A DNA stretch of 64,000 bases from Dehalococcoidales bacterium (GCA_034429595.1 DAOUGB010000089.1:1260-65259), one strand, 5' to 3'. Counted from the stretch's first letter, positions 29,968 through 62,224 are shown. Made by a program: numbers and translations. Notes: a model not told the origin generated them from the sequence alone.

Positions 29968-30083
29968 AAATCCCTCTCTCACTCTCCCCTTGCGAAGGGG
30001 AGAGGATGATTAGTCAAGCCATTTTATCATTGGTTATATAATAATCTTTCCCTCCTTCGTAAGGAGGGATTAAGGGAGATTTA
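29968..30083. repeat. Type-B composite double-hairpin MITE-like element, copy 1
   Basis: AAATCCCTCTCTCACTCTCCCC-TTGCGAA-GGGGAGAGGATGATTAG, an AT-rich spacer, then TTCCCTCCTT-CGTA-AGGAGGGATTAAGGGAGATTTA. It fills the gap between the reductase stop and the cupin C start. Confidence 0.8.
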
Positions 30084-30085
30084 AA

Positions 30086-32176
30086 CTAAATGTTCCTTAC
30101 CACCTGTGAAGCCGTACCGATAGCGTCCGCAATGAGTAAGGGGTCCTGGCAATCGCCGACGGAGTAGACCTCCGGAGCTTTATCTTTTAGTTTTTCGTAC
30201 AGGGCGAGGTTGGGGGATAAAGGCAGGGCGGTCACTATCGTGTCTGCCTGCAGGGCCAGCTTTTCCCCCTCTTTCGTGATAATCGTCAGGCCGTTGCTGG
30301 TTACTTCCATGTCTTTAACGCCGCTGATAAGCCGTACGCCCTTCTTATTGAACCAGGTAAACAGGTAGCCTTGGATAACGTCCACCATGCCCGTTCCCAG
30401 TTTGTCCGCTTTATCCACGATGGTCACCAGCCGGCCGCGCTTGGTAAAATATTCGCCGAGCTCGCAGCCGTGCAAACTCCCCCCGATGATGACCACCCGC
30501 TTCCCGATGGGCAGGTAGAACCTGGTCAGCCAGCGGAGGAGGTTGGGCGGTATAAAGCGTAAATAGGATTTCAGCTGTTTATGCAAAGCCGCGTTGCTGA
30601 CCACGTTTTTATTTTCAATGCCTTTGATATCCGGCGTGGCCTGTAACCCCCCCGCCGCGACGATAATGGCATCCGGCTTCAGTTTATCGGCCGTTTTCTC
30701 GTCAATCTCTTTGCCAAGGTGCATTTTAACGCCCAGGTTCTTGAGCTGGCGCTTATAATACTTAATCAGAGCGGGCAAATCTTCCAGTTCCGTGCCTTTG
30801 ACCACGGCCGCCAGGGGCAGCAGCCCGCCCGTGAAAGGCGTTTTATCGTAGAGGGTTACGTCATGGCCGCGCCGGGCGGCTACCCGGGCGGCTTCCATGC
30901 CCCCCGGCCCCGCGCCGATGACGAGCACCTTTTTCTTTTGCGCCGCCGGCTCGATGGTGTTATAGTCCTTGCCCATGAAAGCGTTGATGCGGCAGCGCCG
31001 CGAACCCAGACAATTTTCGCAGGCGGTGCAGGGCGCGATATCCTTGAGCCTTCCCGCCGCCACTTTGTTGGGGTAATCGGGGTCGGCCTGCAGTCGCCGC
31101 GTCATGGCTATAAAGTCGGCCTTGCCTTCCCGTAAAGCTTTTTCGCCGAGTTCCGCATCGAGTTTGCCCACGACCATCACCGGGATTTTGACCGCCTCTT
31201 TAATCCGGGCGGCCAGGTTCACGTTCCAGGCTTTGCCCCGCCCTTTTACGTCGTAATCTTTAGGGAAGGAACTCAAGGGGATGGGTGGCTCCGGATAGAA
31301 AAGCAGGTCCGGCAGGTACGCGCCGACATGATAGCCGAGCCAGTGGCTGCGCACGTGTATCATGTTCGCACCGGCGGCCTCCAAAAGCCTGGCGGTGGTC
31401 TGCGCGTCTTCTATAGTAATGCATTTTTCATTGGGGATGTCCGCCATCTGCCCGAACTCCGCGGCATTGATGCAGACGGAAACGGGGAAGTCCTGCCCCA
31501 GCCGTTTTTTGATTTCTTTAATGATGGAAGTGACGATGCGCGCCCGGTTTTCCGGCGACCCGCCGTAGGCGTCCTGCCGCCGGTTCCAGAACTTTGACAG
31601 GAAATTATGCAGCAGGTGGCTGCTGGCGGCGTTGATATCCACGCCATCGAACCCGGCTTGCTGCGCGCGTACCGCCGCGCTGGCGAATTTACCGATAATT
31701 ATCTCGATTTCCGGGACGGTCAGCTCCCGCGGCATCTGGTTATGGAAGTCATTTTCCGAATTTAATGTTACGCGGGAAGCGGCTATCGGCGGGCCTAAAA
31801 AGGCGGGGTTGGGGTCTTCAAAAAGCGGGGTCTGCCACGGGCCGTCATGGTTCATCTGCATGAAGGTAGGGCAGTTGTATTTATGGATAATTTCTACCAG
31901 TTCGGTCATCATGGGGATGTATTTATCGTCATCGATGCGGTAGCGGAAACGCCAGCGCGCCCCGGCCGGATAATCAATAATCGGGGATTCCACGATGAGC
32001 AACCCCACCCCGCCCCGCGCCAGCGATTCGTAAAAAGCGCGCATGGCGCCGTTCAATTGCGTCTCATCTTCGTGGGACATGAAGGTGCCGGCGCCCGTCT
32101 TGATAATCCTGTTCCGAGTCTTGACCGGCCCGATATAACCCGGCTCCAGCAGCTTTTGGAATTTCGTATTGCCCAT
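30086..32176 (-). CDS. Old-yellow-enzyme family NADH:flavin oxidoreductase fused to an FAD/NAD(P)-binding domain (2-enoate reductase / 2,4-dienoyl-CoA reductase-like)
   Basis: 696 aa. N-terminal OYE TIM barrel, a Cys cluster (CTACENCLGSRRC), then GAGPGG dinucleotide-binding motifs. Confidence 0.85.
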   Translation of the reverse strand: MGNTKFQKLLEPGYIGPVKTRNRIIKTGAGTFMSHEDETQLNGAMRAFYESLARGGVGLLIVESPIIDYPAGARWRFRYRIDDDKYIPMMTELVEIIHKYNCPTFMQMNHDGPWQTPLFEDPNPAFLGPPIAASRVTLNSENDFHNQMPRELTVPEIEIIIGKFASAAVRAQQAGFDGVDINAASSHLLHNFLSKFWNRRQDAYGGSPENRARIVTSIIKEIKKRLGQDFPVSVCINAAEFGQMADIPNEKCITIEDAQTTARLLEAAGANMIHVRSHWLGYHVGAYLPDLLFYPEPPIPLSSFPKDYDVKGRGKAWNVNLAARIKEAVKIPVMVVGKLDAELGEKALREGKADFIAMTRRLQADPDYPNKVAAGRLKDIAPCTACENCLGSRRCRINAFMGKDYNTIEPAAQKKKVLVIGAGPGGMEAARVAARRGHDVTLYDKTPFTGGLLPLAAVVKGTELEDLPALIKYYKRQLKNLGVKMHLGKEIDEKTADKLKPDAIIVAAGGLQATPDIKGIENKNVVSNAALHKQLKSYLRFIPPNLLRWLTRFYLPIGKRVVIIGGSLHGCELGEYFTKRGRLVTIVDKADKLGTGMVDVIQGYLFTWFNKKGVRLISGVKDMEVTSNGLTIITKEGEKLALQADTIVTALPLSPNLALYEKLKDKAPEVYSVGDCQDPLLIADAIGTASQVVRNI

Positions 32177-32280
32177 AGCTCTTTACACTCCCGCTGGTAA
32201 AACTTGCTGATATTATACAACTTTAACCTTTTAAGTTCATGTGTCACTGCCTGCCCGGCAAAATAACCACTAATCTTTGG

Positions 32281-32309
32281 TTGACATCATTAAATAGAAT
32301 GTGTATACT
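32281..32309 (+). promoter_or_regulatory. Sigma-70-like promoter (TTGACA-N17-TATACT)
   Basis: Hexamers at 32281-32286 and 32304-32309, upstream of the CopG-like gene. Confidence 0.5.
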
Positions 32310-32337
32310 TATGTGTAATAAATATGTGGAGTATAAT

Positions 32338-32589
32338 GTGGTAAGGAAAGTGATACAGGTTCCTTTTGATGAGGAGCTTTTAAAAAACCTGAACAATCTT
32401 TCAAAAAAACGGGGCAGTGCCAGAGCGGAGATAATCCGTCAAGCTTGCTCGCGTTATATACGCCAGGCTGAAAATGAGGATTTGGACAGGATTTATCAAC
32501 AGGGGTATGGAAGATTCCCCGAGCAGTCGGAAGAGGGTGAAGGACAAATAGCCATATCCGGAGAGATTTTATCCAGGGAGCCGTGGTAA
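32338..32589 (+). CDS. CopG/ribbon-helix-helix antitoxin
   Basis: VIQVPFDEELLKNLNNLSKKRGSARAEIIRQACSRYI is an RHH fold pattern. The start is uncertain (GTG 32326, 32338 or 32350); the track start at 32239 lies upstream of the promoter. Confidence 0.65.
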   Translation: MVRKVIQVPFDEELLKNLNNLSKKRGSARAEIIRQACSRYIRQAENEDLDRIYQQGYGRFPEQSEEGEGQIAISGEILSREPW

Positions 32590-32907
32590 TTGCGTCGCGG
32601 GGAAATATGGTGGGCTGAATTGCCACCGCCCGTTGGCAGACGCCCGGCTCTTTTATTATCGAGAAATTCCGCTTACGGTGTCAGGACATCGGTAACCATA
32701 GCCATGGTCACCCGCACCATCCGCGAAATTCCTGTTGAGGTGCTTCTTGATCAGAAAGACGGGATGCCGGTAAAATGTGTGGTTAACCTGGATGAAATCC
32801 TCACTATCCCCAAGTCCAGATTAATAGAACGAATCGCCGTGTTGTCTCCGGAAAAGATGGTTGCGGTAACTAAGGCTATTGTTTTTGCGCTTGACCTGGG
32901 CGTCTAA
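32590..32907 (+). CDS. MazF/PemK-family toxin (mRNA interferase)
   Basis: RRGEIWWAELPPPVGRRPALLLS...VNLDEILTIPKSRL is the PemK/MazF pattern. TTG start directly after the antitoxin stop. Confidence 0.75.
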   Translation: MRRGEIWWAELPPPVGRRPALLLSRNSAYGVRTSVTIAMVTRTIREIPVEVLLDQKDGMPVKCVVNLDEILTIPKSRLIERIAVLSPEKMVAVTKAIVFALDLGV

Positions 32908-32924
32908 CTGATTCTATCTCACTG

Positions 32925-33284
32925 TCAACCACTGATCTTCTCCAGCCCCTCCCGGCACTCTTTCTTTTCCGGCCCCGGCTGCCAGTTGGCGCAGCAGGCG
33001 GGTTTGACGGCATGAATGGCGCAGGCAGAAAGCCCCCCGTCATACTTGAGAAAGGCGCAGGCGCCGTCGACGTGGCGTATGAGACGGTATTCCGAATACT
33101 GCCAGCGCGAATCGTCATAAAGCTCTTCCCAGTCGTTGACCGTTATCCCCAGGTATTGCACGATACGGTCGATATCCGTAGGGGTAACGAAGGCCTGGTG
33201 CCGGGTGCAGCAGACGCCGCAACGCCGGCATTCCATCGGTTTTGTTTCAGATGATTTCATATCTTGATCATAACTATCTTTCAT
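32925..33284 (-). CDS. YkgJ-family (UPF0153) cysteine-cluster protein
   Basis: Has a CRRCGVCC motif plus downstream Cys residues. Confidence 0.65.
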   Translation of the reverse strand: MKDSYDQDMKSSETKPMECRRCGVCCTRHQAFVTPTDIDRIVQYLGITVNDWEELYDDSRWQYSEYRLIRHVDGACAFLKYDGGLSACAIHAVKPACCANWQPGPEKKECREGLEKISG

Positions 33285-33375
33285 TGCGAAACCACGGCTT
33301 GTCGGGGCGAAGTAATCTCATGGAGTATTTAGTCGATTCATAGGATTGCTTCGTCGTTTCACTCCTCGCAATGAC
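33280..33375. repeat. Type-A palindromic MITE-like repeat, copy 3 (inverted orientation)
   Basis: TTCATTGCGAA ... GGATTGCTTCGTCGTTTCACTCCTCGCAATGAC. Its left terminus overlaps the ATG of the YkgJ-like gene. Confidence 0.7.
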
Positions 33376-33383
33376 GCCGGAAT

Positions 33384-33935
33384 CTATTTCACGATAGCGC
33401 TTATCTGCTTGAACTGGTCGCCTTTGGCTACTTTCAACAGCTCGAACAGCGCCATTTCGGTGGTGGTGGGGCTGATGCCCCCGGCCCCCAGCTTGAAAAG
33501 CGTCACCAGCTTATTCTCCGGATCGCGGGAAGCAACGCCGTCGCCGACCACTGCCACCTGGTAGCCCGCCCGCGCTAATGCCACGGCCGTCTGGTAGACG
33601 CAGATATGCGCCTCGATGCCGGCCACGAGCACCTGCTGGCGTTTTAATGATGCCAGCGCTTCCGCGAAAGCAGGTTCGTCACAGCAGCTAAAGCACACCT
33701 TTTCAACCGCCTTAAAGTTCGGGATAAGGCTTTTTACCTCCGGGATGGTGGGGCCCAGTCCCTTGGGGTACTGCTCGGTAACGATGATGGGTATTTCCAG
33801 GGCCAAAGCTCCTTTGACGAGTTTCAACACATTATTCAGGAGCTTTTCCCTGTCATGCATTACCGGGAACAGCCTTTCCTGGAAATCGATGAGCAGCAGG
33901 ACGGTGTTACCGGTGGTAAAAGGTTTTAATTCCAT
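33384..33935 (-). CDS. Isochorismatase-family cysteine hydrolase
   Basis: Has LLLIDFQ, a conserved Lys region and GIEAHICV (the nucleophile Cys). Confidence 0.85.
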   Translation of the reverse strand: MELKPFTTGNTVLLLIDFQERLFPVMHDREKLLNNVLKLVKGALALEIPIIVTEQYPKGLGPTIPEVKSLIPNFKAVEKVCFSCCDEPAFAEALASLKRQQVLVAGIEAHICVYQTAVALARAGYQVAVVGDGVASRDPENKLVTLFKLGAGGISPTTTEMALFELLKVAKGDQFKQISAIVK

Positions 33936-34050
33936 AAAAAAATACCTCGGCTTGTTTGGATTTGCAGCTGGATTCAGCTTGATGATTTAAGTATATAAAC
34001 TCAATCGATATGTGTCAAAAATTTGGGGGTACCGAATCCGGTATTTTTTA

Positions 34051-34572
34051 TCACTTGAACAAAGCCGCCCAGACAATGGCATCCAGGACAACGGTATGAA
34101 GCGCGAAATAACCGGCCCCGGCTACGGCCAGCCAGTAAGCAATGCCGCGGGTATCTACCTGGAGAGAAAGCAGCGCCCATACCAAGGCAATCGAACCGAG
34201 GCCCACTAAAGCCAGCACGCTGCGCACACCTATCCACAGGCCGGTGCCGGGGTTATTCACATACATATTCGTCAGCGGCATCCAGAAAGCGGAAGCGACA
34301 AGAATCACCAGGAAAATGGCATAAAAGAGACTGTATTCCAGGTTCGATGCGGCAGGATCGATGCGGAAAAGAATGTAATAGATGAACGCAAAATATCCCA
34401 GGGCGGAGATAATCATCGAAACCGAGTAAAGCGGCCTGACGTTCTCCGCGACATTGCCCCACAGAACATTCGCGCCGCCCGTCTGGGCTTTCAACCCGTA
34501 GATATAACTTAAGATAACCGCCGCCCCGCCGAGGATGTTGATAATGAGCAATATTATTTGCTGGGTTCCCAT
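34051..34572 (-). CDS. Hypothetical polytopic membrane protein
   Basis: About 5 TM helices. ATG 34572 follows AAGGAG, and I prefer it to the track's TTG 34605. I recognise no family. Confidence 0.55.
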   Translation of the reverse strand: MGTQQIILLIINILGGAAVILSYIYGLKAQTGGANVLWGNVAENVRPLYSVSMIISALGYFAFIYYILFRIDPAASNLEYSLFYAIFLVILVASAFWMPLTNMYVNNPGTGLWIGVRSVLALVGLGSIALVWALLSLQVDTRGIAYWLAVAGAGYFALHTVVLDAIVWAALFK

Positions 34573-34601
34573 AGGTCTACTCCTTTGCATCAAATCATTC
34601 C

Positions 34602-35438
34602 TCAACTTTCACGGAGAGCTACCAATAAGACACCCGGCCCACCGTGCACGCCCAGCCCGGCACCCATTTTCATAATGTTTATCTGATTTTCCGGGAAGAA
34701 ATCACCCAGCCGTTGCTTGAGTTTTTCCGCCTGCTCCGGGATGGCGCTGTGAACGATAATCATCTCCGCGATATTGTGTTTTCCCTGAACGAATTTATAA
34801 AGCCTATCCATACCGCGGGAAATACTGCGTACCAGTCCCGCCCGGACAATATCTCCTTCATGGAAAGTGAGCAGCGGCTTGACATTGAGAATATTGGCCG
34901 CCGCAACGATAGTTTTACTAACGCGGCCGCTCCGGGCCAGATACTTCATGGTGTTGAAAAAGCCGAACATATCTACCCGGCGGATGGTTCCCCGGATTTC
35001 TTCCGTAAGCGCCGCCAGACTTTTGGGGGTCTTGGATATTCTGGCGGCGGCCATCGTTACCAGGGCAAGTCCTGCCGAATTGAACCGGGAATCGATTATT
35101 TCAATGGGACATTTACTGCCGAGCATCTTTTTGGCGATCATGGCCGAGTTATAGGTCCCGCTTATTTTGGATGAGATATGGATGGATATTATGCCTTCAG
35201 CTTTCTGGCAGTATTCCTTATAAACACTCTCGAAATCTTCCGGGGTGGGCTGCGATGTGGCGGGATGGACCGGTGAATTTGCCAGCGTCTTATAGAAAGT
35301 ATCGCTATCCATGTCCACCCCGTCGCGGTAGACCTTAGCCCCGAAGCGGACGTATATCGGCACGACGCGGATACCGAGTTTCTCCGCTGTATCCGGAGGG
35401 ATATCGGAGGTGCTATCGGTAATAACCTGGATACTCAT
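34602..35438 (-). CDS. DegV family fatty-acid-binding protein (FakB-like), paralog 3
   Basis: Has MSIQVITDSTSD, PATSQPTP and LARSGRVSK, which are DegV blocks. Confidence 0.85.
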   Translation of the reverse strand: MSIQVITDSTSDIPPDTAEKLGIRVVPIYVRFGAKVYRDGVDMDSDTFYKTLANSPVHPATSQPTPEDFESVYKEYCQKAEGIISIHISSKISGTYNSAMIAKKMLGSKCPIEIIDSRFNSAGLALVTMAAARISKTPKSLAALTEEIRGTIRRVDMFGFFNTMKYLARSGRVSKTIVAAANILNVKPLLTFHEGDIVRAGLVRSISRGMDRLYKFVQGKHNIAEMIIVHSAIPEQAEKLKQRLGDFFPENQINIMKMGAGLGVHGGPGVLLVALRES

Positions 35439-35503
35439 GGTCTTCCCTTTACAATTACTGCCTGGATAAAGTCAAATCCGCTAGCGATAGCCGATTAAAA
35501 CCA

Positions 35504-36268
35504 TTACAAAACCAGCACGTTCGCGAATACCTGCCAGGCAAGTAGAGCTTTAGCTGTGAGACTTAGAATAATGTATACTTTTTCACCGAACAGGTAATCG
35601 CGCCAGGGTCCCACTTTCTTGTACTGTAATACCATGTTGACGGCAAAGCAGTTAAAGAAAACAAAGAGAGAAACAATGATGCCGTAGACAAACCCGGGCG
35701 GGGATGTGCTTACCCCGGGCGCAATAACATAGATAACTATGGCAATCCAAGGGATGATACCGGCGAAACTACCAAACCAGAATGGAAGCCAGCTTGGCTT
35801 ACCGGGTCGCTCATACTTTTCCTGTAACGCGCCGAAGAGTATCATGCAGGCGTTAATACCGAAGATGGGCAGTAGAGCGGCAATATCACTGATACCGCAT
35901 ATCTGGGAAATCAGCACGATCATAATCGAAGAGCTGAAGAAATACTCGATCCAGCGCCCGTAATTCCGGCTTTCAAGCAGATTGCGCTTGTACCAGGGGA
36001 AGACCCAGGGAGACGCAATCAGCAGGAGCGCTAAGGCTGATATTGCCATAAAGGCGAAAACACCCCAGCCGGTCTGAATATCCCATATATTGTGAAGTGT
36101 TGCAGGACTGCCGGGAGGCCCTTGCATGAAGGTGGCTGTTACCGGAAGGGAGAAGTTATTGGTAAGTACAGCCATGAGTACTGCCTGTACCGCAAGTACA
36201 AGCCCGACAACAAGGTTCCAGATTCTAAGGTTATTGAGCTTCCGTTCAATGGCCTGGTCAAGAGTCAT
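35504..36268 (-). CDS. Heliorhodopsin
   Basis: 254 aa with 7 TM helices. Collinear with heliorhodopsin 48C12 as I remember it (LPVTATFMQGPPG, RWIEYFFSSSIMIVLISQICGISDIAALL, LQEKY, LPFWFG..AGIIPWIAIVIYVIAPG, PGFVYGIIVSLFVFFN, YIILSLTAKALLAWQVF with the Schiff-base Lys). Strong AAGGAGG RBS. Confidence 0.85.
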   Translation of the reverse strand: MTLDQAIERKLNNLRIWNLVVGLVLAVQAVLMAVLTNNFSLPVTATFMQGPPGSPATLHNIWDIQTGWGVFAFMAISALALLLIASPWVFPWYKRNLLESRNYGRWIEYFFSSSIMIVLISQICGISDIAALLPIFGINACMILFGALQEKYERPGKPSWLPFWFGSFAGIIPWIAIVIYVIAPGVSTSPPGFVYGIIVSLFVFFNCFAVNMVLQYKKVGPWRDYLFGEKVYIILSLTAKALLAWQVFANVLVL

Positions 36269-36424
36269 AATATCCTCCTTTTCATAGCCATAGTCCCTTG
36301 GGGTAAAGAATACGGGAATATTATAAGAACGGGCAATGAGCTTGGATGTAACTTTTGTCTCATCCGGGGAAATATAAGGCAGGCAACGAGGAATACCAGC
36401 TATAAAAAATTACTTTCATACCTA

Positions 36425-36453
36425 TTGCAAAAAGAAAAACGCCATTATATAAT
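36425..36453 (+). promoter_or_regulatory. Sigma-70-like promoter (TTGCAA-N17-TATAAT)
   Basis: Hexamers at 36425-36430 and 36448-36453. Implies a leader of about 110 nt before GTG 36568. Confidence 0.5.
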
Positions 36454-36567
36454 ATCCAACGGTGGTTTTCTGTCTAGGTTATCGCAAATGATAGTACATT
36501 ACTTAAACCTGACCCAGTTACGGATGACCTTAGCTCTAACCAACTAACTGAAGAAAGGAGGTCATCC

Positions 36568-36864
36568 GTGGCTTTTCAGGATAAGACGTTGACATGTTCC
36601 GATTGCGGCACCCAGTTCACGTTCTCCGCTGCGGAACAAGAGTTCTTCCAATCCAAGGGTTATACCAACGAACCCAAACGCTGCCCCACCTGCCGTCAGG
36701 CTAGGAAAGCTGAGCGCGCTGGCACCGGCGGTATGAAGACCCGGCAGATGTATCCTGCTGTCTGCGCCGAATGCGGCAAGGATACGGAAGTACCTTTCGA
36801 GCCTCGCGAGGGCAGACCCGTTTATTGCTCTGACTGCTTTAGCAAAATGCGGACTAACCGCTAA
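36568..36864 (+). CDS. Zinc-ribbon domain protein (two CxxC...CxxC units)
   Basis: Has CSDCG..CPTC and CAECG..CSDC. GTG start after GAAAGGAGG. Confidence 0.65.
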   Translation: MAFQDKTLTCSDCGTQFTFSAAEQEFFQSKGYTNEPKRCPTCRQARKAERAGTGGMKTRQMYPAVCAECGKDTEVPFEPREGRPVYCSDCFSKMRTNR

Positions 36865-36892
36865 ATAGTCCTCTAAAATTGCTGGCACAAAG

Positions 36893-36932
36893 ATAGACCG
36901 GTGAGATTTAGTTTTCACCGGTCTATTTTTTT
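36893..36932 (+). terminator. Rho-independent terminator
   Basis: 11-bp stem ATAGACCGGTG / CACCGGTCTAT followed by T7. Confidence 0.8.
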
Positions 36933-46316: not shown

Positions 46317-47062
46317 CCTAACGCCATACCGCCATCGACGGCGATGACCTGCCCGGTAACGTAACGCGCTGCATCGGAAGCTAAAAATGCCACGACTTCC
46401 GCCACATCACGCGGCGAGCCGCTGGTCCCCAGCGGTATATGCTGCAGAAAAGCCTGCTTCTGTTTCTCGTCCAATTTCTCCGTCATCTTCGTCTCGATAA
46501 AGCCGGGGGCGATAGCGTTGGCGGTAATCCCGCGTGAGCCCGCTTCTTTAGCGATGGATTTGGTCAGGCCGATAATCCCGGCCTTGGCGGAAGCGTAGTT
46601 GGCCTGCCCGGCATTGCCCATGAGACCTACCACGCTGGCAATGCTGATGATTCTGCCGGAACGTTGCTTCATCATGTGCCGCAGGACAGCGCGGGTGCAT
46701 AGAAACGCGCTCTTGAGGTCGATATTGAGAACAGTATCCCATTCCTCGTCGGACATGCGCATGATAAGCTGGTCACGCGTCACGCCGGCGTTATTGACCA
46801 GGATATCGACTTTACCCATGGTGCTGACGGCGGTTTCTATCATGCCATTTACATCCGCCGCGGAACTGACATCGGCGGTGACGGCCAGGGCTTTTCTACC
46901 CAGCGCCTTGATTTCATTAGCGGTGCCTTCCAGCGTTTCCGCCGCCGCGGCGATATCATTGACGACGATATCCGCCCCGGCCTCCGCCAGTCTTAGAGCA
47001 ATGGCTTTGCCAATGCCCCGGGCGCTGCCGGTAACGACGGCTACTTTATTCGAGAGGTCCAT
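46313..47062 (-). CDS. fabG: 3-oxoacyl-[ACP] reductase
   Basis: Has VAVVTGSARGIGKAIA, NNAG and YASAKAG (the SDR catalytic YxxxK). ATG 47062 follows AGGAGGT; the longer track ORF runs into a repeat. Confidence 0.85.
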   Translation of the reverse strand: MDLSNKVAVVTGSARGIGKAIALRLAEAGADIVVNDIAAAAETLEGTANEIKALGRKALAVTADVSSAADVNGMIETAVSTMGKVDILVNNAGVTRDQLIMRMSDEEWDTVLNIDLKSAFLCTRAVLRHMMKQRSGRIISIASVVGLMGNAGQANYASAKAGIIGLTKSIAKEAGSRGITANAIAPGFIETKMTEKLDEKQKQAFLQHIPLGTSGSPRDVAEVVAFLASDAARYVTGQVIAVDGGMALG

Positions 47063-47077
47063 GATTACCTCCTGTTT

Positions 47078-47191
47078 AAATCCTTCTCCCACTCTCCCTT
47101 GACGAAAGGAGAGGATGATGGTATTTACCCGTTTATCTCTGTGATGAGTTCATCTTCCCCTCTTTGAAAAAGAGGGGCCGGGGGAGATTTA
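47078..47191. repeat. Type-B composite double-hairpin MITE-like element, copy 2
   Basis: AAATCCTTCTCCCACTCTCCCTT-GACGAA-AGGAGAGGATGATGG, a spacer, then CCCCTCTTT-GAAAA-AGAGGGGCCGGGGGAGATTTA. Its last TTA is the complement of the fabD stop codon. Confidence 0.8.
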
Positions 47192-49942: not shown

Positions 49943-49944
49943 CC

Positions 49945-51136: not shown

Positions 51137-51349
51137 TCAGCCTTTCTTGGGGGCCGGTTTTTCCAGCGTAATCGCTTTAAAGCTGCAAGCCTCCACGCAC
51201 TTGCCGCAGGAAATGCAGCCTTCTTTCACCGTGCTTTTCATATCCACCAGTTCCAGCACGTTCACCGGGCAGACGTAGGTGCAGGCCCCGCACCCCGTAC
51301 ATTTTAACCTGTCTATTTTTACGCCCAAGGTCTTAAATCCCTCTCTCAC
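51137..51349 (-). CDS. 4Fe-4S dicluster ferredoxin
   Basis: Has CTGCGACTYVCP and CISCGKCVEAC. The real start may be TTG 51328, because the first 7 codons of the track ORF lie inside a type-B repeat. Confidence 0.7.
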   Translation of the reverse strand: MREGFKTLGVKIDRLKCTGCGACTYVCPVNVLELVDMKSTVKEGCISCGKCVEACSFKAITLEKPAPKKG

Positions 51350-51449
51350 TCTCCCTTTTTCAAAGGGAGAAGATGATTAGCTAAACCATATTATCTTTGT
51401 TTATATTCAATCTTCCCCTCTTTAGAAAAGAGGGGCAAGGGGAGATTTA
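51335..51449. repeat. Type-B composite double-hairpin MITE-like element, copy 3
   Basis: AAATCCCTCTCTCACTCTCCCTTTTTCAAAGGGAGAAGATGATTAG, a spacer, then CCCCTCTTT-AGAAA-AGAGGGGCAAGGGGAGATTTA. Its terminal TTA is the complement of the etfB stop codon. Confidence 0.8.
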
Positions 51450-55349: not shown

Positions 55350-55353
55350 AATA

Positions 55354-56217
55354 CTAACTCATTTCCTTCAGTTTTTTCATTACCTCGTCCACGGTATCTT
55401 CCGCCGTGGAAGCCCCGGACGTAACGCCGATATGCTTTTTGCCCTTAAGCCAGTCCGGTTTGATGTCAGCAGCCGTCTCGATTAAATGCGTTTCGGTGAC
55501 CGGGAAACAAAGCTCGGCCATATTTTCAGAATTAGCGCTTTCAGACCCCCCGACTACCAGTATAAGATCGGCCCGGTGCGCCATTTCGAGGGCGGCTTCC
55601 TGTCTTTCTCTTAGCGGGTGACAGATGGTATCGATAAACCGGATTTCCGAATTCTTAGTTAAAGCGATGCCGCGAATATTTTCCACGAACCTGGCAAAAT
55701 TAGCGGGTACCTGGGTTGTCTGGGAGAGAATGCCCAGCTTCCGGGGGAAGGGGTCGAGCGCCGCCACGACCTTTTCATCCATGGTAGCCAGGCCGCGGTT
55801 CTTCGCCCAGCCGAGGATGCCCTCGACCTCGGCGTGTTTAGCGTTGCCATAGATAATCACAAAAAAGCCGGACTCCGCCAGTTTTTCCGCGGCGGACTGG
55901 GCGCGCTGCACGTTATTACAGGTACCGCTGATAATTTTAATGCCGCGGGCGCGGATTTTTTCTTCCAGGTCAGGACTGATGCCGTGCGAACTGGTGACCA
56001 CCGTATCGCCTTTAATTTCATCGATGTTTTTCACAGACTTTACGCCAATATCCGCAAGTTTTTTCAGCACCTGCCGGTTATGCACAATATCCCCCAGGGT
56101 TTCCACGCCGCCGCGCTCGCGGGCGACCTTCTCCACCAGGTTCACCGCGCGTTCAACACCGAAGCAGAAGCCGGTCTTGCCGGCTTTTTCAATGACCGGT
56201 TTTATTTTCTGTGCCAT
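55354..56217 (-). CDS. ispH: 4-hydroxy-3-methylbut-2-enyl diphosphate reductase
   Basis: Has GFCFGVERAV, the conserved Cys positions and an IspH-typical length. Confidence 0.9.
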   Translation of the reverse strand: MAQKIKPVIEKAGKTGFCFGVERAVNLVEKVARERGGVETLGDIVHNRQVLKKLADIGVKSVKNIDEIKGDTVVTSSHGISPDLEEKIRARGIKIISGTCNNVQRAQSAAEKLAESGFFVIIYGNAKHAEVEGILGWAKNRGLATMDEKVVAALDPFPRKLGILSQTTQVPANFARFVENIRGIALTKNSEIRFIDTICHPLRERQEAALEMAHRADLILVVGGSESANSENMAELCFPVTETHLIETAADIKPDWLKGKKHIGVTSGASTAEDTVDEVMKKLKEMS

Positions 56218-56863
56218 AGACTCCCTGATATTCCGGCGGCAGTATATCCGCTATTTTTCTCATCATAAGGTCCGCCATCTCGCGGCGCTGTTCGCGGGTA
56301 ATTTTACCATTATGGGGCGGGAGGTCGAAGGGCTTGCCGATGGTAACCGCTATTTTAGGGTGGTGCAGGAAGCACCATTTAAGATGACGGAGGTGTTCCG
56401 ACCCCGTAATACTCACCGGCAGGAGGGCAACGCCCATGCGGGCGGCGATCAAAACGGCGCCGGGCAGGGCTGGCGTCATTTGAGCGTTGGGGCTGCGGGC
56501 GCCTTCCGGGAACATGATGACGGAAAAGCCTTCTTTAAGGGCGCGTTCCGCGCTGCGAATGGCCTCCGTATCGATGCTGCCGCGGCGCACCGGAAATGCC
56601 CCGAAGTTGGCTACCCAAAAACGGCTCCACGCGTTATGCCAGAGGTCCTCTTTAGCCATGAACTTACATTTAAGCGGGATGCTGGCGGCGATAATCGGAG
56701 GGTCGGCGAGGTGAAGGTGATTGCAAACGATGAGTACCGGCTTATCCTTGGGGAGGTTTTCCTTGCCTTTTACCTTCCAGAAAGCAAAGAAGAACACCAG
56801 GAAGCGTATCAAACCTCTCCCGAAGTAATAAACAAAGTGCATCCGGCTTTTGGTTTGTTTCAT
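56189..56863 (-). CDS. plsC: 1-acyl-sn-glycerol-3-phosphate acyltransferase
   Basis: Has the NHLHLADP (HxxxxD) and FPEGARS motifs. Its 3' end overlaps the ispH start by 29 nt. Confidence 0.75.
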   Translation of the reverse strand: MKQTKSRMHFVYYFGRGLIRFLVFFFAFWKVKGKENLPKDKPVLIVCNHLHLADPPIIAASIPLKCKFMAKEDLWHNAWSRFWVANFGAFPVRRGSIDTEAIRSAERALKEGFSVIMFPEGARSPNAQMTPALPGAVLIAARMGVALLPVSITGSEHLRHLKWCFLHHPKIAVTIGKPFDLPPHNGKITREQRREMADLMMRKIADILPPEYQGVYGTENKTGH

Positions 56864-56919
56864 ATGACCGTATTATTTAACTATATTCTGGAGGAAGAAG
56901 ACAAGAAAAATGTATGGCT

Positions 56920-57366
56920 TTACAACCGGTTCTGGATGGATGTCCTGATTTGCCGCATCAGGTCTTTATCACGCTCGGCGTCAAACCTGGGTAAGACCAC
57001 GCGCTCGCGTTCATAGAACCAGACCGGCAACTTGCGCAGTTCTTCTGGTTCGCTCATGTAGCGGGGGATGATATGCGCATGTAAAGCCGGGTTCATATCG
57101 CCGAGGATTTCATAATTAATGCGGTAGGTGTCCGTCACTTCCAGCAGCGCGTCACCGACGATAACCATGTCGGTTAAAAACCGGTCGCGCGCCTCTTTAT
57201 CAAGATAGTTGAGGTCGGGCACTACGGGGTCGGGCAGCAGCAGGCAGTAGCCGCGGGTATACTGTACATCGCCCATCACCACCCATCCGGACGGCACCTC
57301 GCAGATAACCGCTGCATTTCTTTTTGCCCTGGCCTTCTCAACGCGCCGTTGTATCTGGGTTTTCAT
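56920..57366 (-). CDS. HIT-superfamily protein (variant histidine triad ALHAHIIPR)
   Basis: Has a C-terminal HxHxx-type motif, and its size is typical of HIT proteins. Confidence 0.5.
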   Translation of the reverse strand: MKTQIQRRVEKARAKRNAAVICEVPSGWVVMGDVQYTRGYCLLLPDPVVPDLNYLDKEARDRFLTDMVIVGDALLEVTDTYRINYEILGDMNPALHAHIIPRYMSEPEELRKLPVWFYERERVVLPRFDAERDKDLMRQIRTSIQNRL

Positions 57367-58196
57367 GAGAGTCCTAATCCTTTGATTCTTCTTTTTATTT
57401 CCGGTAAAGCTTCTTCGGCGGCCTCACGGCCGTAGTCAATGAATTCTTTAGCCAGCCTGAAATCACTGAAAGTGGTATGCCCCAGGTCCGGCTCGATAGT
57501 GATATCGGCTTCCAGCATGCAGCTGCGTGCCAGCGAGTAGGTGGTGATGTAGAAGGACTGCATCAGTATCTGGAAAATGTTGGGTTCCCTGCGGGCTTTG
57601 GCCCGCTGTGTGGAGGTCTTGCTCATACGCTGGGATACATCAGGGTTGACGTTCACGGCGATGATAAAATCGGCGCCCATATGCCGGACAACGTTAATCG
57701 GCACCGGCGTGGTTAGTCCGCCGTCGACCAGGTAGCGCCCTTCCCGCCTGACCACGGTAAAAATACCGGGGATGGAAATACTGGCGCGGACGGCATCTAT
57801 CACTGGGCCGTTATTGATAACCACTTCTTCGCCGGTATCGATATCCGTAGCCACGCAGGCAAACGGAATCTTGAGGTCGGTGAACTTTAAATCCCCGCCG
57901 ATAAAGCCGGTCAGCAGGTTCTTGATTTTCCTGCCCTTGAGAAAGCCGGATTTTTCCACGGTGGGGTCGACCATCGGGGTGAACTTCTTCCAGGCAGGGT
58001 CGAGGGCATACTCCAGCATCTTTTCCGTGTCCAGACGTGAAGCGTAGACCGCCCCCATAATCGCCCCGGCGCTGGTGCCGGCAATCAAATCTATGGGGAT
58101 ACCTGCCTGGTGCAGAACGTCCAGCACCCCGATATGCGCCAGCCCGCGCGCCCCGCCGCCGCTTAATGCCAGCCCCACCTTTTTCTTATTATTCAT
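57363..58196 (-). CDS. Patatin-like phospholipase
   Basis: Has GGGARG (oxyanion hole), GTSAGA (nucleophile) and DGG (the catalytic Asp motif). ATG 58196 follows GGAGG. Confidence 0.85.
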   Translation of the reverse strand: MNNKKKVGLALSGGGARGLAHIGVLDVLHQAGIPIDLIAGTSAGAIMGAVYASRLDTEKMLEYALDPAWKKFTPMVDPTVEKSGFLKGRKIKNLLTGFIGGDLKFTDLKIPFACVATDIDTGEEVVINNGPVIDAVRASISIPGIFTVVRREGRYLVDGGLTTPVPINVVRHMGADFIIAVNVNPDVSQRMSKTSTQRAKARREPNIFQILMQSFYITTYSLARSCMLEADITIEPDLGHTTFSDFRLAKEFIDYGREAAEEALPEIKRRIKGLGLS

Positions 58197-58462
58197 CCCA
58201 TCCTCCAGGTATTTCGCCGTCATCTATATTATACCTGATGGACGCAATGAATTGGTGCGGGTTAACCCTTATTCATACTATGGTTAAACACGCTCACCGC
58301 GATTGGATTAATTATTCCGCTCGCCCTAAGCCCCCGGCGTGGTTCCACTCGTTCCGATTCGTCAGAGTGAACTAAGTCGCCACCGCAGTGAGCCCGGTCA
58401 AAAGCTTATCTAAGGGGCGGCATCTGTAATTTGGATAAAAGCCGGTATCTATCTTGGCCTTG

Positions 58463-58521
58463 CCCCCTCTCTAAAGGGGACATGGAACCATTCATCAGCT
58501 TATTTTGAGAGGGGGATGATT
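58463..58521. repeat. Degenerate type-B-like hairpin (CCCCCTCTC ... GAGAGGGGGATGATT)
   Basis: Shares the CTCTC/GAGAG arms and the GATGATT tail with the type-B elements. Confidence 0.4.
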
Positions 58522-58600
58522 TTCTTGATAGGGGTTCACGCTCCTCTTTGATACCCTGTTGCGGGCATCGATGCCGCCCTTTTTTAAAGGGGGAAAGATG

Positions 58601-58629
58601 TTGACAAAAAAGTTTCTGCTCCATAAAAT
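58601..58629 (+). promoter_or_regulatory. Sigma-70-like promoter (TTGACA-N17-TAAAAT)
   Basis: Hexamers at 58601-58606 and 58624-58629, upstream of the MarR gene. Confidence 0.45.
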
Positions 58630-58731
58630 GTAACTATAACAGAAACAATAAGCGTGATACATACTATTAGTCTGAATGAAGAGTTTGGGGTTAGGAATGG
58701 TTGGCGCGAAAAGCTGCGAGGAGAATAAGCG

Positions 58732-59223
58732 ATGAATAAGAAGGAACTAATCCGCCAGGCCATCGGATTTCAGAAAGAAATTGACCGGTTGATTATGTAT
58801 TTCAAAATCGAAGAATGGCTATCGCTTGACCTTACCATAGCCCAGCTAAAGAGCGTTATTTATATCTATCAAAAGAGGAAGGCCAGCTATAAGGAACTTG
58901 CCGAAGCGCTTAACGTAACACCGTCAGTAGTGACTGGAATTGTCGACCGGCTGGTAATACAGGGTATGGTAAAACGTAAGGTAGGAGATAAGTCAGCCGA
59001 CCGCCGCGTTCAATGGCTCGTAGTCACCGATAAGGGTAAAGCACTTCTTGATAACATACGGCAGCAAATGCACGTAAATATGGAACAAATATTAGAGACA
59101 ATGAGTATTGAAGACCTTTCAGCTATGATAAAAGGCTTTTCCTCTCTTATTAAAGCAGCTGGGACATTCCTTAAAAACTCAAGTAAGCCAGCCGGAATAG
59201 CTGCTAACCAGGAAGAATTCTGA
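58732..59223 (+). CDS. MarR-family transcriptional regulator
   Basis: Winged-HTH pattern (LTIAQLKSVIYI...YKELAEALNVTPSVVTGIVDRLV..G.V.R..D..DRR). Confidence 0.8.
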   Translation: MNKKELIRQAIGFQKEIDRLIMYFKIEEWLSLDLTIAQLKSVIYIYQKRKASYKELAEALNVTPSVVTGIVDRLVIQGMVKRKVGDKSADRRVQWLVVTDKGKALLDNIRQQMHVNMEQILETMSIEDLSAMIKGFSSLIKAAGTFLKNSSKPAGIAANQEEF

Positions 59224-59257
59224 AAACAGCGGGCTGATATTATTCATTGGAGGTTAA

Positions 59258-59377
59258 ATGAACGAGGGAAATTATACCGGGCTAATCGTACTTGGCAGTA
59301 TTATTGTGCTTTGTATCATCGGAGTAATCGTCTACTCGATAGTAAAGCGGGTGAAAAAACACAATAAGCCGGAATAA
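59258..59377 (+). CDS. Possible 39-aa single-TM micro-protein
   Basis: MNEGNYTGLIVLGSIIVLCIIGVIVYSIVKRVKKHNKPE. GGAGG lies 5 nt upstream. Confidence 0.4.
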   Translation: MNEGNYTGLIVLGSIIVLCIIGVIVYSIVKRVKKHNKPE

Positions 59378-59501
59378 ATCATCGTCTGATTAAAAACAGC
59401 TTAATCAGGAAGGAAAGATTATAGCGATTCGTGAACCTGCACAATTTATTTCTCCCTTAGTAGGCAGAATGTGAAATTATTGTATTCAGGGTTGATGTGC
59501 G

Positions 59502-60425
59502 ATGAAAGAAACACGCATCAGGAAAAGCTATCATTCCAGACGCTGGAGGTTGCCGGTCATTCTGGTGTTCGTCCTCATTATCAATATCGTAGTGGGGCTA
59601 TCGGTAACTTCTGTAGGTGTAGCCTCGGAACTTGGTGCCGGCGGGCATCCTCTGTACGCCGGCACCGATTTATCAGCAGTGCCGGAGTCCGTAGCTGATG
59701 ACGCCGTCCAATTAGCTGGCCGGCTATTCGGTGATATTGGAGAGGAATCCCAAAATTTCATAGACGAACTGCTGTCTATGTATGTGGAATCTCAAGATAA
59801 AGACGTGCTGCTACTTTTCAATCCCGGCGGCTGGGGAAACAACCTTCCGGAAACGGATACAGGCTGGGGGAGTATCCTGAATGGAATACAAGGGCAATTG
59901 TCTGCTTCCGGCATCGATTCTCTGGTACTAACATACCAGCGTACCGCGGATAATTTCTTCGGCCATTGTGAGGAGTTTGTGGAGATGTTTCTGAACTACT
60001 CATCCAAGGCAGAAGACCTGGCTTCACGCATAGAGTTCTTGACCGTACAAAACCCCGATCTCAAGGTAGTGGTTACCGGGGAGAGCATGGGTACGCTCAT
60101 CAGCGGCGAGGTTATGGATATCCTGTCCCAAAACCCGCAGGTCTTTAGTATCCAGACCGGACCGCCCCCCTGGTACCGGGGCGAAAATACAGACCGGACA
60201 CTGGTTATCGCCGATAACGGAATTGTTCCTGACTCCTTCAGCCGGGGCGATGTATTGACGATAATCAAGGCTAACCTGACTGCCCTGTTTAACCTATCTT
60301 CGTCTGAAAAAAGCCAGGGTACGGTGCTGAAACTTTTTCAATCTCCGGGTCATGATTATTCCTGGCAATACCCGGCTGTCTCTTCACAGATAACGGGGTT
60401 CCTGAAGAATACGGTCGGTCGATAA
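59502..60425 (+). CDS. Hypothetical membrane-anchored protein, possible alpha/beta hydrolase (GESMG nucleophile-elbow-like motif)
   Basis: Has an N-terminal TM helix, and VVVTGESMGT resembles GxSxG. Confidence 0.35.
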   Translation: MKETRIRKSYHSRRWRLPVILVFVLIINIVVGLSVTSVGVASELGAGGHPLYAGTDLSAVPESVADDAVQLAGRLFGDIGEESQNFIDELLSMYVESQDKDVLLLFNPGGWGNNLPETDTGWGSILNGIQGQLSASGIDSLVLTYQRTADNFFGHCEEFVEMFLNYSSKAEDLASRIEFLTVQNPDLKVVVTGESMGTLISGEVMDILSQNPQVFSIQTGPPPWYRGENTDRTLVIADNGIVPDSFSRGDVLTIIKANLTALFNLSSSEKSQGTVLKLFQSPGHDYSWQYPAVSSQITGFLKNTVGR

Positions 60426-60472
60426 TAAAGGACTCTCTATTCCGTAAAACGGGCAAGAGCGGGATTTTTCCC

Positions 60473-62104
60473 TTATTCCCAGAGTTTTTCCAGGTCATCA
60501 TCGGGCTTTTTACCGGCAGGCGGCTGGCTCTCCGGCGTAAAGCTGCTGTAGGATTTGGCGGAGCCGTACTCGCGGGGCTGGAAAGCCACCGGCATGGGCA
60601 CGGCGTGCCCGAAGATGAGCGCCTGCTGCTTGGGGGCGAGACGGGCTAAAACGGACTTAAGCTCGTTCTTGCCGGAGACGCCCGCGAGGACGCTATCGAT
60701 ATCCTTTTCATTATCCAGGAGGCAGGTTATCTTGGTGCCGAGCTGGGACATGATGTCATCATAAATGCCGGAGGGACGCTGGTCGATGACGAGCAGGGTG
60801 ACGTTGTATTTGCGCATCTCCCGCGCGATGGTGCCGAAGATGGTCTGCCCGGCCACCTCCGGGTTGAGGAACTTGTGCGCTTCCTCGATGGTGATGACCA
60901 GCGGGTTGGGCTTGGCGCTATCTTCCGCCTCGGCTTTTTCCGTGCGTTCTTGATATTTTTGATAAATACGTCTGGCAAGCATATTGGCCACGAGAATATA
61001 GGAGGTTATATCTTGGTGGCGACCGAATTCCAGCACAACGTTTATACCCCGGTCGAGGTGGTCGATGATGCTTTTCACGGCGTCTGCTGGAGCATGGGGT
61101 TCGATAAAAGACAGCCGCCCGATGTTACTAAGGCCGCGTTTAAGGTTACCAAATGTCCCTTCATGAATAGATAAGGATTCAAGTAACTCTTTAATATCCT
61201 CTCCATTTTCGAGTTCGAGTGTCTTCTGTATCCAGCTTTTACCGAAGCGTCGCTCCAATTGATATACCGCTGCAACCGCTTGCTCGGTAAGGTTTAAAGT
61301 CTCGCGTAAAAGAGCGATATCGGCTGGTTCTATTTCATCGTAACCGATTTTTACCACAAAGTCAGGGCTGAAACCACGGCGTCTTGAACTTACTTCATCC
61401 AAAGAAAATATGGCCACTTTTGACTGTATAAACGGTAATTGCTTGAGACCTTTAACGCTGCCTCCGGTTCCTTCAAAAGTGCCTTTCCAGCCGTACTCGT
61501 TGTGCATATCGAAAATCAGGTTGACGGCCTTGCTTTTCTGCAGCATCCCGATGAGCAGGATACGCGTCAGGAAGGTCTTGCCGGTGCCGCTCTTGCCGAA
61601 GATGCCGTTGGAGCGCTTGACGAACTCCTCCAGGTTGAGGCAGAGCTTGGTCTCCATATCCAGCGGGTTACCGATGAAGAATCTTTGCTTGTCCTCCTCC
61701 CCGAAGACAAGCTCCATATCCCGTTCCGTAGCCAGGTTGACGGTGGAGAAGTGGGCGGGGATGGTCTTGACGGGCTGGGGGCCTTCCAGCGTGGCATCAA
61801 CATCGCCGCCGATGGTGAGCATGGGGGTAACGTGTATCTGCCCGAAGGTGCTGGTGCCGGAGAGAACATCTTTCATAAAGGGGTCGGCGACATCGGGCGG
61901 GGAAACGGAGAGGCGCTCGTCGGTGTACTTCAGGCTGACGTCCGTAATCATCCCGAAGAAGCGGCGCTTCTGCCCCTCGATGGTCACGTAGCGCCCCACC
62001 ACCATATCCTCCACGGAGACGGGGCTATCCAGCCGGACGTCCACGCCTTTTTCCAGCGAGGCCGAGGTAACGATACCGAGTTTTTGGTTATTTTCCGGGT
62101 TCAT
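60473..62104 (-). CDS. HerA/FtsK-superfamily ATPase (HerA-like, DUF87-type) with N-terminal HAS-barrel
   Basis: Has Walker A GKSGTGKT, Walker B LVITIEEAHKF and the HerA-typical LLVIDQRPSGI. ATG 62104 is preferred because the longer track ORF runs into a type-B repeat. Confidence 0.85.
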   Translation of the reverse strand: MNPENNQKLGIVTSASLEKGVDVRLDSPVSVEDMVVGRYVTIEGQKRRFFGMITDVSLKYTDERLSVSPPDVADPFMKDVLSGTSTFGQIHVTPMLTIGGDVDATLEGPQPVKTIPAHFSTVNLATERDMELVFGEEDKQRFFIGNPLDMETKLCLNLEEFVKRSNGIFGKSGTGKTFLTRILLIGMLQKSKAVNLIFDMHNEYGWKGTFEGTGGSVKGLKQLPFIQSKVAIFSLDEVSSRRRGFSPDFVVKIGYDEIEPADIALLRETLNLTEQAVAAVYQLERRFGKSWIQKTLELENGEDIKELLESLSIHEGTFGNLKRGLSNIGRLSFIEPHAPADAVKSIIDHLDRGINVVLEFGRHQDITSYILVANMLARRIYQKYQERTEKAEAEDSAKPNPLVITIEEAHKFLNPEVAGQTIFGTIAREMRKYNVTLLVIDQRPSGIYDDIMSQLGTKITCLLDNEKDIDSVLAGVSGKNELKSVLARLAPKQQALIFGHAVPMPVAFQPREYGSAKSYSSFTPESQPPAGKKPDDDLEKLWE

Positions 62105-62224
62105 TAAATTCTCCCTCTTATCCCTCCTTACGAAGGAGGGATGATGATTGAATATAACCAAGAGAACAATGGAATTAACCCATCATCCTCTCCCTTTGAA
62201 AAAGGGAGAGTGAGAGAGGGATTT
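62105..62224. repeat. Type-B composite double-hairpin MITE-like element, copy 4 (inverted orientation)
   Basis: The reverse complement aligns end to end with copies 1-3. It abuts the HerA ATG on one side and the stop codon of 62225..62806 on the other. Confidence 0.8.

Follow-up and report, generated by a model that had tools for sequence, protein, structure and literature searches.

We analyzed a 64 000-nt stretch of DNA from a Dehalococcoidales bacterium (GCA_034429595.1, DAOUGB010000089.1:1260–65259; in the following, the window) and observed that the composite double-hairpin element found there in four full copies, here called type B, is an inserted repeat whose two termini also bracket small nuclease genes of the DUF559 family (PF04480; Vsr/EDxHD fold). 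Type B copies lie behind stop codons within operons, are biased in orientation, follow triplex rules in their architecture and can offer a Shine–Dalgarno (SD) sequence to the next gene, and the main DUF559 clades are each accompanied by their own type of hairpin unit. We consider it probable that type B is the gene-less form of, or a non-autonomous partner to, a promoter-less DUF559 cassette living in operons. A preliminary description made from the window alone had regarded the element as a MITE (miniature inverted-repeat transposable element) that targets TA/TAA and has been domesticated, or is tolerated, as an intercistronic RNA structure.

Architecture and distribution of the type B element

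The four copies and, for copy 1, their parts are located as follows:

29968–30083, plus strand (CT-rich strand on plus, antisense to the operon): copy 1, at a junction that is empty in 8 of 8 comparable relatives
29968–29978 and 29982–30004: head and hairpin of unit 1 (U1) of copy 1
30011–30046: spacer of copy 1
30049–30069 and 30073–30083: hairpin and mirror tail of unit 2 (U2) of copy 1, with the loop TTA between them
47078–47191, plus strand (antisense): copy 2, with CCG as second loop, as in the E. coli type B motif
51335–51449, plus strand (antisense): copy 3, whose last 3 nt (51447–51449) are the TAA of etfB at its native stop position
62105–62224, minus strand: copy 4, in the minority sense orientation (CT-rich strand as mRNA strand)

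The copies occupy the positions given for them in the preliminary description and can be aligned over their whole length; identity per column averages 79%, and 66 columns are invariant. Each copy is an inverted pair of two units, one per strand, around a spacer of ~30 nt. Within a unit, a pyrimidine arm is joined by a loop to a purine arm, and a second loop of 3 nt leads to a block that repeats the arm in mirror order; this 3-nt loop reads TTA in copy 1 and CCG in copy 2. The two-hairpin layout reported before held when 53 copies from many genomes were compared: 98.7% of the cells in hairpin 1 and 99.0% in hairpin 2 are standard pairs, compared with 45–69% in slid controls, and three doubly-changed (covarying) pairs were found in each. 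The element ends in AAATC…/…GATTT, which had been taken for a short terminal inverted repeat; the ends are indeed there, and they are better described as mirror-repeat ‘third strands’ of the flanking hairpins, the head AAATCCCTCTC mirroring the adjacent pyrimidine arm and the tail GGGAGATTT the adjacent purine arm. Scoring G.G:C, A.A:T and T.A:T as valid purine-motif triplets, we obtained 96.8% valid triplets for U1 and 85.5% for U2 over the 53 copies and 20–65% when the partner was slid by 1–3 columns, where the conservation of unit 1 arises partly by construction because the 20-mer used for collecting the outside copies lies in unit 1 and fixes part of it. In copy 3, 9 of 9 triplets of U2 are valid.

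The source genome is a fragmented metagenome-assembled genome (MAG) of the Dehalococcoidia with 2.6 Mb, 163 contigs and 52% G+C. With an nhmmer profile made from the four window copies (self-scores E = 1e-29 to 4e-33) we found ~37 full-length copies (105–120 nt) and many partial matches in it, so that the genome-wide census suggested earlier yields dozens of copies beyond the window and a non-coding family that is dispersed and shows the behavior of a mobile element. Half-profiles detected 190 non-overlapping half-units, 119 of them outside full copies. The repeat was found in 14 of 17 congeneric genomes; beyond the genus, all 7 remaining genera of the same family and 4 of the 16 further families in the order contain it, and the 20-mer from the left end occurs at more than 110 loci in public genomes, nearly all labelled as Dehalococcoidia or Dehalococcoidales MAGs. 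Matches in Patescibacteria are real, and they are single units, not doublets. Type B belongs to a large mosaic repeat family of the Dehalococcoidia, one unit of which is also present in Patescibacteria. In one Patescibacteria genome (G042, L203:1440–2700), the same hairpin units occur between tandemly arranged genes for small membrane proteins of pilin-like or TrbC-like type; here they have sense orientation, and GGGAGAG stands 8 nt upstream of each ATG.

Two further occurrences were rejected: the single full type B copy of a 5.6-Mb MAG labelled ‘Acidobacteriaceae’ (G041:C6:569247–569360) lies in the last 550 nt of a 570-kb contig, probably a chimeric contig end, and a Lachnospiraceae match consists of the bare 20-mer only. 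A search for phage carriage gave 0 hits in viral contigs, and literature searches returned no paper on a MITE of Dehalococcoidia or Patescibacteria or on a DUF559-linked repeat.

DUF559 genes lie between type B termini

DUF559 is represented in the source genome by seven intact genes and one relic, and all 8 loci are flanked by hairpin-plus-mirror units within ~45 nt, in most cases at 0–10 nt. Using the type B half-profiles we found a unit at a distance of at most 80 nt from 5 of the 8 DUF559 loci, compared with 144 of 2501 genes outside the family (odds ratio 27, p = 3e-5); the units at the remaining three loci are diverged and were recognised by eye. A DUF559 gene or relic is directly touched by 4 of the ~37 type B copies. 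In the relatives, units occur within 120 nt of 20 of 28 DUF559 loci, mostly on both sides, and nearly all units present in the 3.3-kb DUF559 loci adjoin the gene. The DUF559 proteins are encoded by free-standing open reading frames (ORFs) of 115–135 aa between operon genes. The protein matches the family at 1e-38 and resembles the Neisseria structure 3hrl, the closest solved one, at 4.5e-22, and the model of E. coli YcjD.

The sequences bracketing DUF559 are the two termini of type B. Read in the sense of the operon, …hairpin-GAGAGGGATTTT directly precedes the DUF559 start and the DUF559 stop directly precedes AAATCTCCCTTAA-hairpin. At the start junction, …hairpin-GAGAGGG(A/T)TTTT runs straight into the ATG or GTG of a gene whose product begins with MHPYN or VLPYD, while at the other end the stop is followed by (T)AA(A/T)TCTCCCTTAA-hairpin; both this start junction and the stop junction AAT CTC CCT TAA followed by TCCCTCC are conserved. 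In three genomes the final DUF559 codons and the stop are the unit itself (AAT CTC CCT TAA, read as N L P and stop). Frequently a complete short-spacer doublet is present on both sides of the gene (B-DUF559-B). A search for an ORF family enclosed recurrently by head and tail, in the order found in type B, gave none; only DUF559 shares these ends, in an outward-facing arrangement. The 20-mer scan also led to four genomes of 0.8–1.0 Mb that carry DUF559 with the same layout, three of them labelled as Patescibacteria or a phylum therein and one as Gammaproteobacteria, and one of their DUF559 genes has the same junction, in which GAGAAAGGGATTT is directly followed by ATG CTT CCT TAT.

We further calculated a quick tree of 42 DUF559 domains, in which the main clades were supported at 95–100 and each clade has its own type of downstream unit. 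Several clades coexist in one genome, three of them in the source genome. The units of clades I and II are dispersed without a gene as well, at 10 and 9 places. One of these places lies within the window at 11524–11564, overlapping a region (11538–11617) previously thought to hold a degenerate relative of type B; this assignment had to be given up, since the region matches the clade II unit at E = 1e-4 and the type B profile at only E = 3.5. No significant match was found for a second proposed relative at 58463–58521.

Among 41 genomes, 18 contain both the repeat and DUF559, 8 the repeat only, 1 DUF559 only and 14 neither, and copy numbers of the two rise together; as the genomes are kin, this co-occurrence is not an independent test. 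At the junction of the fumarase alpha and beta genes, we observed a DUF559 relic with a unit in the source genome, a solo doublet in one relative (G011) and nothing but 9–33 nt in seven relatives.

Type B copies are insertions between operon genes

We searched for each of the four junctions in 17 congeneric genomes, with the following result:

Junction 1, reductase/156-aa gene: empty in 8 of 8 comparable genomes; empty spacer of ~12–21 nt with its own SD
Junction 2, fabD/fabG: empty in 7 genomes; spacer of 14–57 nt; an unrelated inverted-repeat element in four and other hairpin units in two
Junction 3, etfB/ferredoxin: empty in 3 genomes; spacer of 21–23 nt; elsewhere single units, permuted unit pairs or the inverted-repeat element seen at junction 2
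Junction 4, 193-aa gene/HerA: empty in at least 5 genomes; stop–start gap of 3–4 nt; elsewhere larger insertions

Because the orthologous junctions of sister species are empty, at all four sites, the copies are insertions and not conserved spacers. The flanking housekeeping genes are syntenic in all relatives; this synteny, together with ends that have no R''/R' cores (RYYYAAC…GTTRRRY), led us to reject integron attC sites as an explanation. A second, unrelated inverted-repeat element (TGTCATTCTGAG…CTCAGAATGACA, ~90–150 nt) was found at the same operon junctions in sister species (fabG/fabD in G009, G017, G012 and G010), and it also adjoins DUF559 genes (L166, L167 and L173; downstream of the gene on contig C156 in the source genome).

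The borders of the neighboring genes in the window, and one related unit, are as follows:

29963–29965, minus strand: ATG start of the 156-aa gene, 2 nt beyond the end of copy 1
30086–30088, minus strand: TAG, the native stop of the OYE-type reductase gene, 2 nt ahead of copy 1, matching the position of the relatives’ stop
47060–47077, minus strand: fabG ATG (47060–47062) and 15 nt of retained native spacer with AGGAGG; copy 2 is not the SD donor
51326–51328, minus strand: TTG start of the ferredoxin gene (63 aa, 2x[4Fe-4S]), 6 nt after copy 3
62102–62104: ATG of HerA, abutted by copy 4, with the tail GGGAG 6 nt upstream
62225–62227: TAA of the 193-aa gene, abutting the head of copy 4
11524–11617, no strand assigned: a distinct, related unit family (CCCCCTCTCCG..CGGAGAGGGGG plus purine tail) of the type flanking DUF559 clade II genes, not a type B copy

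As had been noted, fabD and etfB have their TAA stops in the terminal bases of copies 2 and 3. For copy 2 these are the final 3 nt (47189–47191), on which a shortened FabD ends with IKALE, while the proteins of the relatives end with ALSA, ALGS or ALITQI. The earlier statement that each copy fills the whole gap fails for copy 2, where the fabG ATG is still preceded by the 15 nt of native spacer. Copies 1 and 4 place GAGGGA or GGGAG 5–6 nt upstream of the start, which agrees with the SD supply proposed for these two; the limitation to them does not stand, since copy 3 is also the sole SD source for the ferredoxin gene. At junctions 1 and 3 the native SD of the relatives is lost and the GAGAGGGA of the element stands 5–9 nt before the start codon: the only SD of the 156-aa gene is GAGAGAGGGA of copy 1, and the only SD-like sequence of the ferredoxin gene is the copy 3 end GAGAGGGA, whereas its relatives use ATG or GTG with an own GGGG-type SD. 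Altogether, in three of the four window copies (1, 3 and 4) the purine end is the only SD for the next gene.

Pfam supported the names given before to the flanking genes, namely OYE-type reductase, acyltransferase (fabD-like), SDR (fabG-like), ETF subunit (etfB), 2x[4Fe-4S] ferredoxin and HerA, except for the ‘cupin’ label of the 156-aa gene, for which the Pfam search gave no hit. The gene calls come from a longest-ORF heuristic. As a consequence for annotation, gene callers extend starts too far into the elements: for HerA they choose a TTG that lies within copy 4, and the start of the ferredoxin gene is also called wrongly. An N-terminal extension of HerA by 7 codons (MNPENNQ; window 62084–62104) is found solely in genomes with insertions at junction 4.

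Placement behind stops, and orientation that follows transcription

In contrast to the proposed duplication of TA or TAA, no direct repeat (TA, TAA or TTTA) was observed in the flanks of 81 copies, so that a MITE targeting TA/TAA is not supported. The lengths of the terminal A-run and T-run co-vary in these 81 copies and thus belong to the element, and the TA ends of the window copies are missing from an AAAA…TTTT subfamily. Stop-codon adjacency, also suggested before, was borne out: 18 of 23 antisense copies in the source genome begin −3 to +11 nt from the upstream stop, while the next start is up to 377 nt away. Sense copies such as copy 4 abut a stop as well, via their opposite end.

At co-directional junctions the CT-rich strand is antisense or sense in a ratio of 23:2 in the source genome and 33:12 elsewhere; about 80–90% of the copies are antisense. 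Since either end of the element adjoins stops, stop adjacency cannot alone explain this bias. A cause in the replication strand was rejected, because GC skew is unrelated to the strand of the element, and gene strand follows skew at just 57:43. In a relative assembled in five contigs (G012), the repeats keep their strand where 32 IS200 copies switch. From the missing relation to GC skew and the missing strand switch we conclude that the orientation bias is tied to transcription and not to replication. Copies are rare in divergent promoter regions.

The 32 IS200-type Y1 transposases of G012 (contigs C2–C5) are near-identical, their strand depends on chromosome position as for replication-coupled insertion, and this genome has twice the size of its congeners.

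Origin of the repeat

How could a gene-less repeat and a gene family come to share their ends? According to the reading we prefer, a DUF559 cassette would land directly behind a stop codon and would owe its transcription to read-through of the host operon, with the purine block at its downstream end being the SD that serves DUF559 in the full cassette and restarts the next host gene in the gene-less form. We propose that insertions into intercistronic gaps of 10–20 nt would be tolerated because the element brings an SD and a stop-compatible end, that these two would be built in because the cassette needs its own expression, and that most copies would share one orientation because the host promoter has to read the full cassette in sense. 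Type B would then be derived from, moved by or maintained by the DUF559 element with the hairpins as putative recognition sites, and read-through and SD use would take place in vivo. Solo doublets may have arisen by gene loss from B-DUF559-B through recombination between direct B copies (route a) or by movement in trans, as REPINs are moved by RAYTs (route b); the data fit both routes.

Several points weigh against this origin. The copies are old, mostly 75–85% alike within the genome with 91% for the best pair, and give no sign of current movement. The units of a doublet face inward around the spacer and those of unit-ORF-unit outward, so that a doublet is not a simple deletion product and needs either a B-ORF-B intermediate or independent spread. 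Gene-less units outnumber DUF559 genes by at least 20:1, and the nuclease could be a passenger homing into repeats. In 8 genomes with the repeat DUF559 was not detected, several of these genomes being 61–83% complete; kinship among the 41 genomes inflates the count of joint occurrences, and the tree has many weak forks, with 95–100 reached by the main clades only. Finally, neither a nuclease activity nor a cut site, a target duplication or an excision product has been recorded.

Some of these points would be expected if the repeats were an independent selfish or structure-driven family, spread by host or transposase activity, and DUF559 a homing-type passenger that inserts, for example, at the palindromic tail-to-head arrangement in which GAGGGATTTT is joined to AAAATCCCTC. 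We regard this explanation as possible, although rather doubtful. The excess of gene-less units and the eight genomes without detected DUF559 speak for it, the ORF stands at one fixed position between tail-type and head-type ends, as after site-specific insertion, and the tail-to-head arrangement without an ORF exists in one congener (G008) and in Patescibacteria; DUF559 is also kin to EDxHD homing endonucleases (PMC3424549; PMC9403480). However, the clade-specific pairing and the joint occurrence across phyla fit co-travel of repeat and gene at least equally well. Moreover, DUF559 start and stop use the SD and the TAA of the unit, so that expression of the gene would depend on the units, and no other mobility gene is associated with the repeats, the Y1 transposases being without a link to them.

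It is improbable that the element owes its retention mainly to a role as intercistronic RNA device, in which the hairpins would stabilise or process the mRNA and the outer stem would pair the post-stop UCUCCC with the GAGGGA SD until a terminating ribosome unmasks the SD (translational coupling). Some properties would suit such a device. In the folding check proposed earlier, both strands fold better than shuffled sequences (z = −2.3 to −5.0) into a predicted closing stem with three hairpins, and in copy 1 the predicted closing stem covers the SD; orientation tracks transcription and not GC skew, divergent promoter regions contain few copies, and three of the four window copies carry the sole SD. 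On the other hand, two of the helices are weak: the central hairpin is paired in 64% of the cells and the outer closing stem in 81%, the latter with zero doubly-changed pairs, so that covariation does not support it. Stem mismatches of the G.U type (15 of ~1720 cells) and of the A.C type (21) are equally rare, and because G.U is no better tolerated the stems behave as DNA palindromes do, and unlike an RNA helix under selection on a single strand. The same junctions work element-free in sister species and with unrelated insertions in others, no promoter-like or terminator-like site was found inside the element, and no Rfam family was matched at its gathering score, the hits of the element being at chance level (25.7 bits against a gathering score of 100). 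Domestication as an RNA structure is thus unproven, and the stems look like DNA-level palindromes. The Rfam search of the window gave two tRNAs only; the match at 25623–25695 is weak, with 36 bits compared to 66 for the tRNA at 11696–11767.

A REP/REPIN family mobilised by a RAYT or IS200-type Y1 (HUH) transposase, suggested by the inverted-hairpin doublet design and by three Y1 proteins in the source genome, one of them RAYT-like, is effectively refuted: the RAYT-like gene is bracketed by a different, GTAG-tagged palindrome and the IS200/IS605 copies have unrelated ends, 30 Y1 loci in relatives have no units at their ends, Y1 genes occur in only 11 of 41 genomes while the repeat is present in 26 (among them a genome that has 23 repeat matches and no Y1), and the orientation follows neither GC skew nor the IS200 strand switch of G012. 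The palindrome bracketing the RAYT-like gene (contig C23:1966–2510, L143) is GTAGGGTGGGTG…CACCCACCCTAC; palindrome and gene would make up a REP-type system of their own within this genome.

Relation to known repeat systems

The class of repeats to which type B belongs is already known as the intrastrand triplex motifs BoxC/PIT/TMECO, with the TMECO plan consisting of a pyrimidine stem of 9 nt, a loop of 3–6 nt, a purine stem of 9 nt, a TTA or CCG loop and a mirror purine stem of 9 nt (Holder et al. 2015, PMC4666352). Type B shares this block plan, including the TTA and CCG loops of TMECO types A and B, and like BoxC/PIT/TMECO it is multi-copy, intergenic, variable in presence among relatives and without a transposase nearby. 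Inverted pairs of two subtypes are known from BoxC/PIT/TMECO, for which mobility genes were never found nearby and origin and mechanism were called unanswered (PMC4666352); they correspond to the ~37 doublets of an H1-type and an H2-type unit found here. However, the strict TMECO consensus CCCTCNCCC-N3-6-GGGNGAGGG-N3-GGGNGAGGG has 0 matches in the whole source genome, so that type B is a member of the broad triplex-motif class only and not TMECO proper. Its sequences are more A/T-mixed and end in A/T runs, and the density of at least 111 pyrimidine/purine hairpins with a mirror block per 2.6 Mb compares with 23 in E. coli K-12. Type B is strongly biased in orientation and in stop placement, whereas TMECOs were reported without strand bias; its ends act as stop and SD within operons, and a link to DUF559 is absent from the TMECO study (PMC4666352). 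New, in contrast to the known class, are the lineages (Dehalococcoidia and Patescibacteria), the density, the strict placement behind stops, the transcription-linked orientation, the SD donation and the clade-matched linkage to DUF559.

In E. coli K-12 the DUF559 gene ycjD ends inside a TMECO-like hairpin (CCCTCTCCC-TGAAA-GAGCGAGGG), and a canonical TMECO follows 170 nt downstream. About 45 nt of the ycjD 3' end (GGAGACGGTGCTGGAGAATATTC..CTGAACCG; L292:2800–2960) are repeated after the stop and before the canonical TMECO, as if a second cassette end had left a relic there. Immediately upstream of ycjD, a hairpin (CTCATTCTGACAA/TTGTCAGAATGAG, L292:3262–3298) has the core CATTCTGA in common with the TGTCATTCTGAG…CTCAGAATGACA element.

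With REP/REPIN–RAYT systems the repeat shares short hairpin units found both singly and in inverted doublets of ~100 nt, a gene of nuclease type and small size that is bracketed by inverted units, and gene clades that match repeat types. In contrast to them, the enzyme here has the Vsr/PD-(D/E)XK fold of DUF559 and is not a Y1 HUH transposase, the units have no GTAG or CGTC tag and carry a mirror third strand, and DUF559 is multi-copy (7–10 per genome) while RAYT is typically single-copy.

Operon MITEs (Correia/NEMIS, ERIC and RUP) and mycobacterial MIRUs resemble type B in being non-coding, 100–150 bp long and located in transcribed intergenic gaps, and MIRUs also overlap flanking stop and start codons in operons. 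As with MITEs, presence and absence vary at orthologous sites, but type B shows no target-site duplication, no matching DDE transposon and, at its termini, mirror-repeat blocks instead of plain terminal inverted repeats. DUF559, Vsr and DUF2726 have been placed in one fold group with the EDxHD or Vsr-like homing endonucleases of the I-Bth0305I family (PMC3424549). In contrast to these endonucleases, the DUF559 genes described here are free-standing and lie outside introns and inteins.

Implications

Since the 1990s, catalogues of BoxC/PIT/TMECO repeats have come to cover hundreds of bacterial genomes without an assigned mobility gene, origin or function (PMC4666352). We tentatively suggest, without holding it to be probable, that DUF559 nucleases might be the missing enzyme partners of these triplex repeats, forming a REP/RAYT-like system with a Vsr-fold nuclease. 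Each clade would recognise the folded unit framing its own gene and would multiply or maintain gene-less doublets, and nuclease and repeat together would pass from one phylum to another (Chloroflexota and Patescibacteria), surviving in operons by means of the stop-compatible end and SD that the units bring.

The source genome constitutes a natural experiment in this respect: it holds three DUF559 clades, each with its own repeat type and each type also in gene-less form, and it offers dated empty sites in sister species and one unit common to an unrelated phylum. Because clades and repeat types coexist here, an action of DUF559 on the repeats is directly testable with three proteins and three substrates. 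Taken together, our findings indicate that a selfish element can colonise the 10–20-nt gaps of housekeeping operons, among them those for fatty-acid synthesis, ETF and HerA, without polar damage, because it carries a stop-compatible end and a ribosome-binding site.

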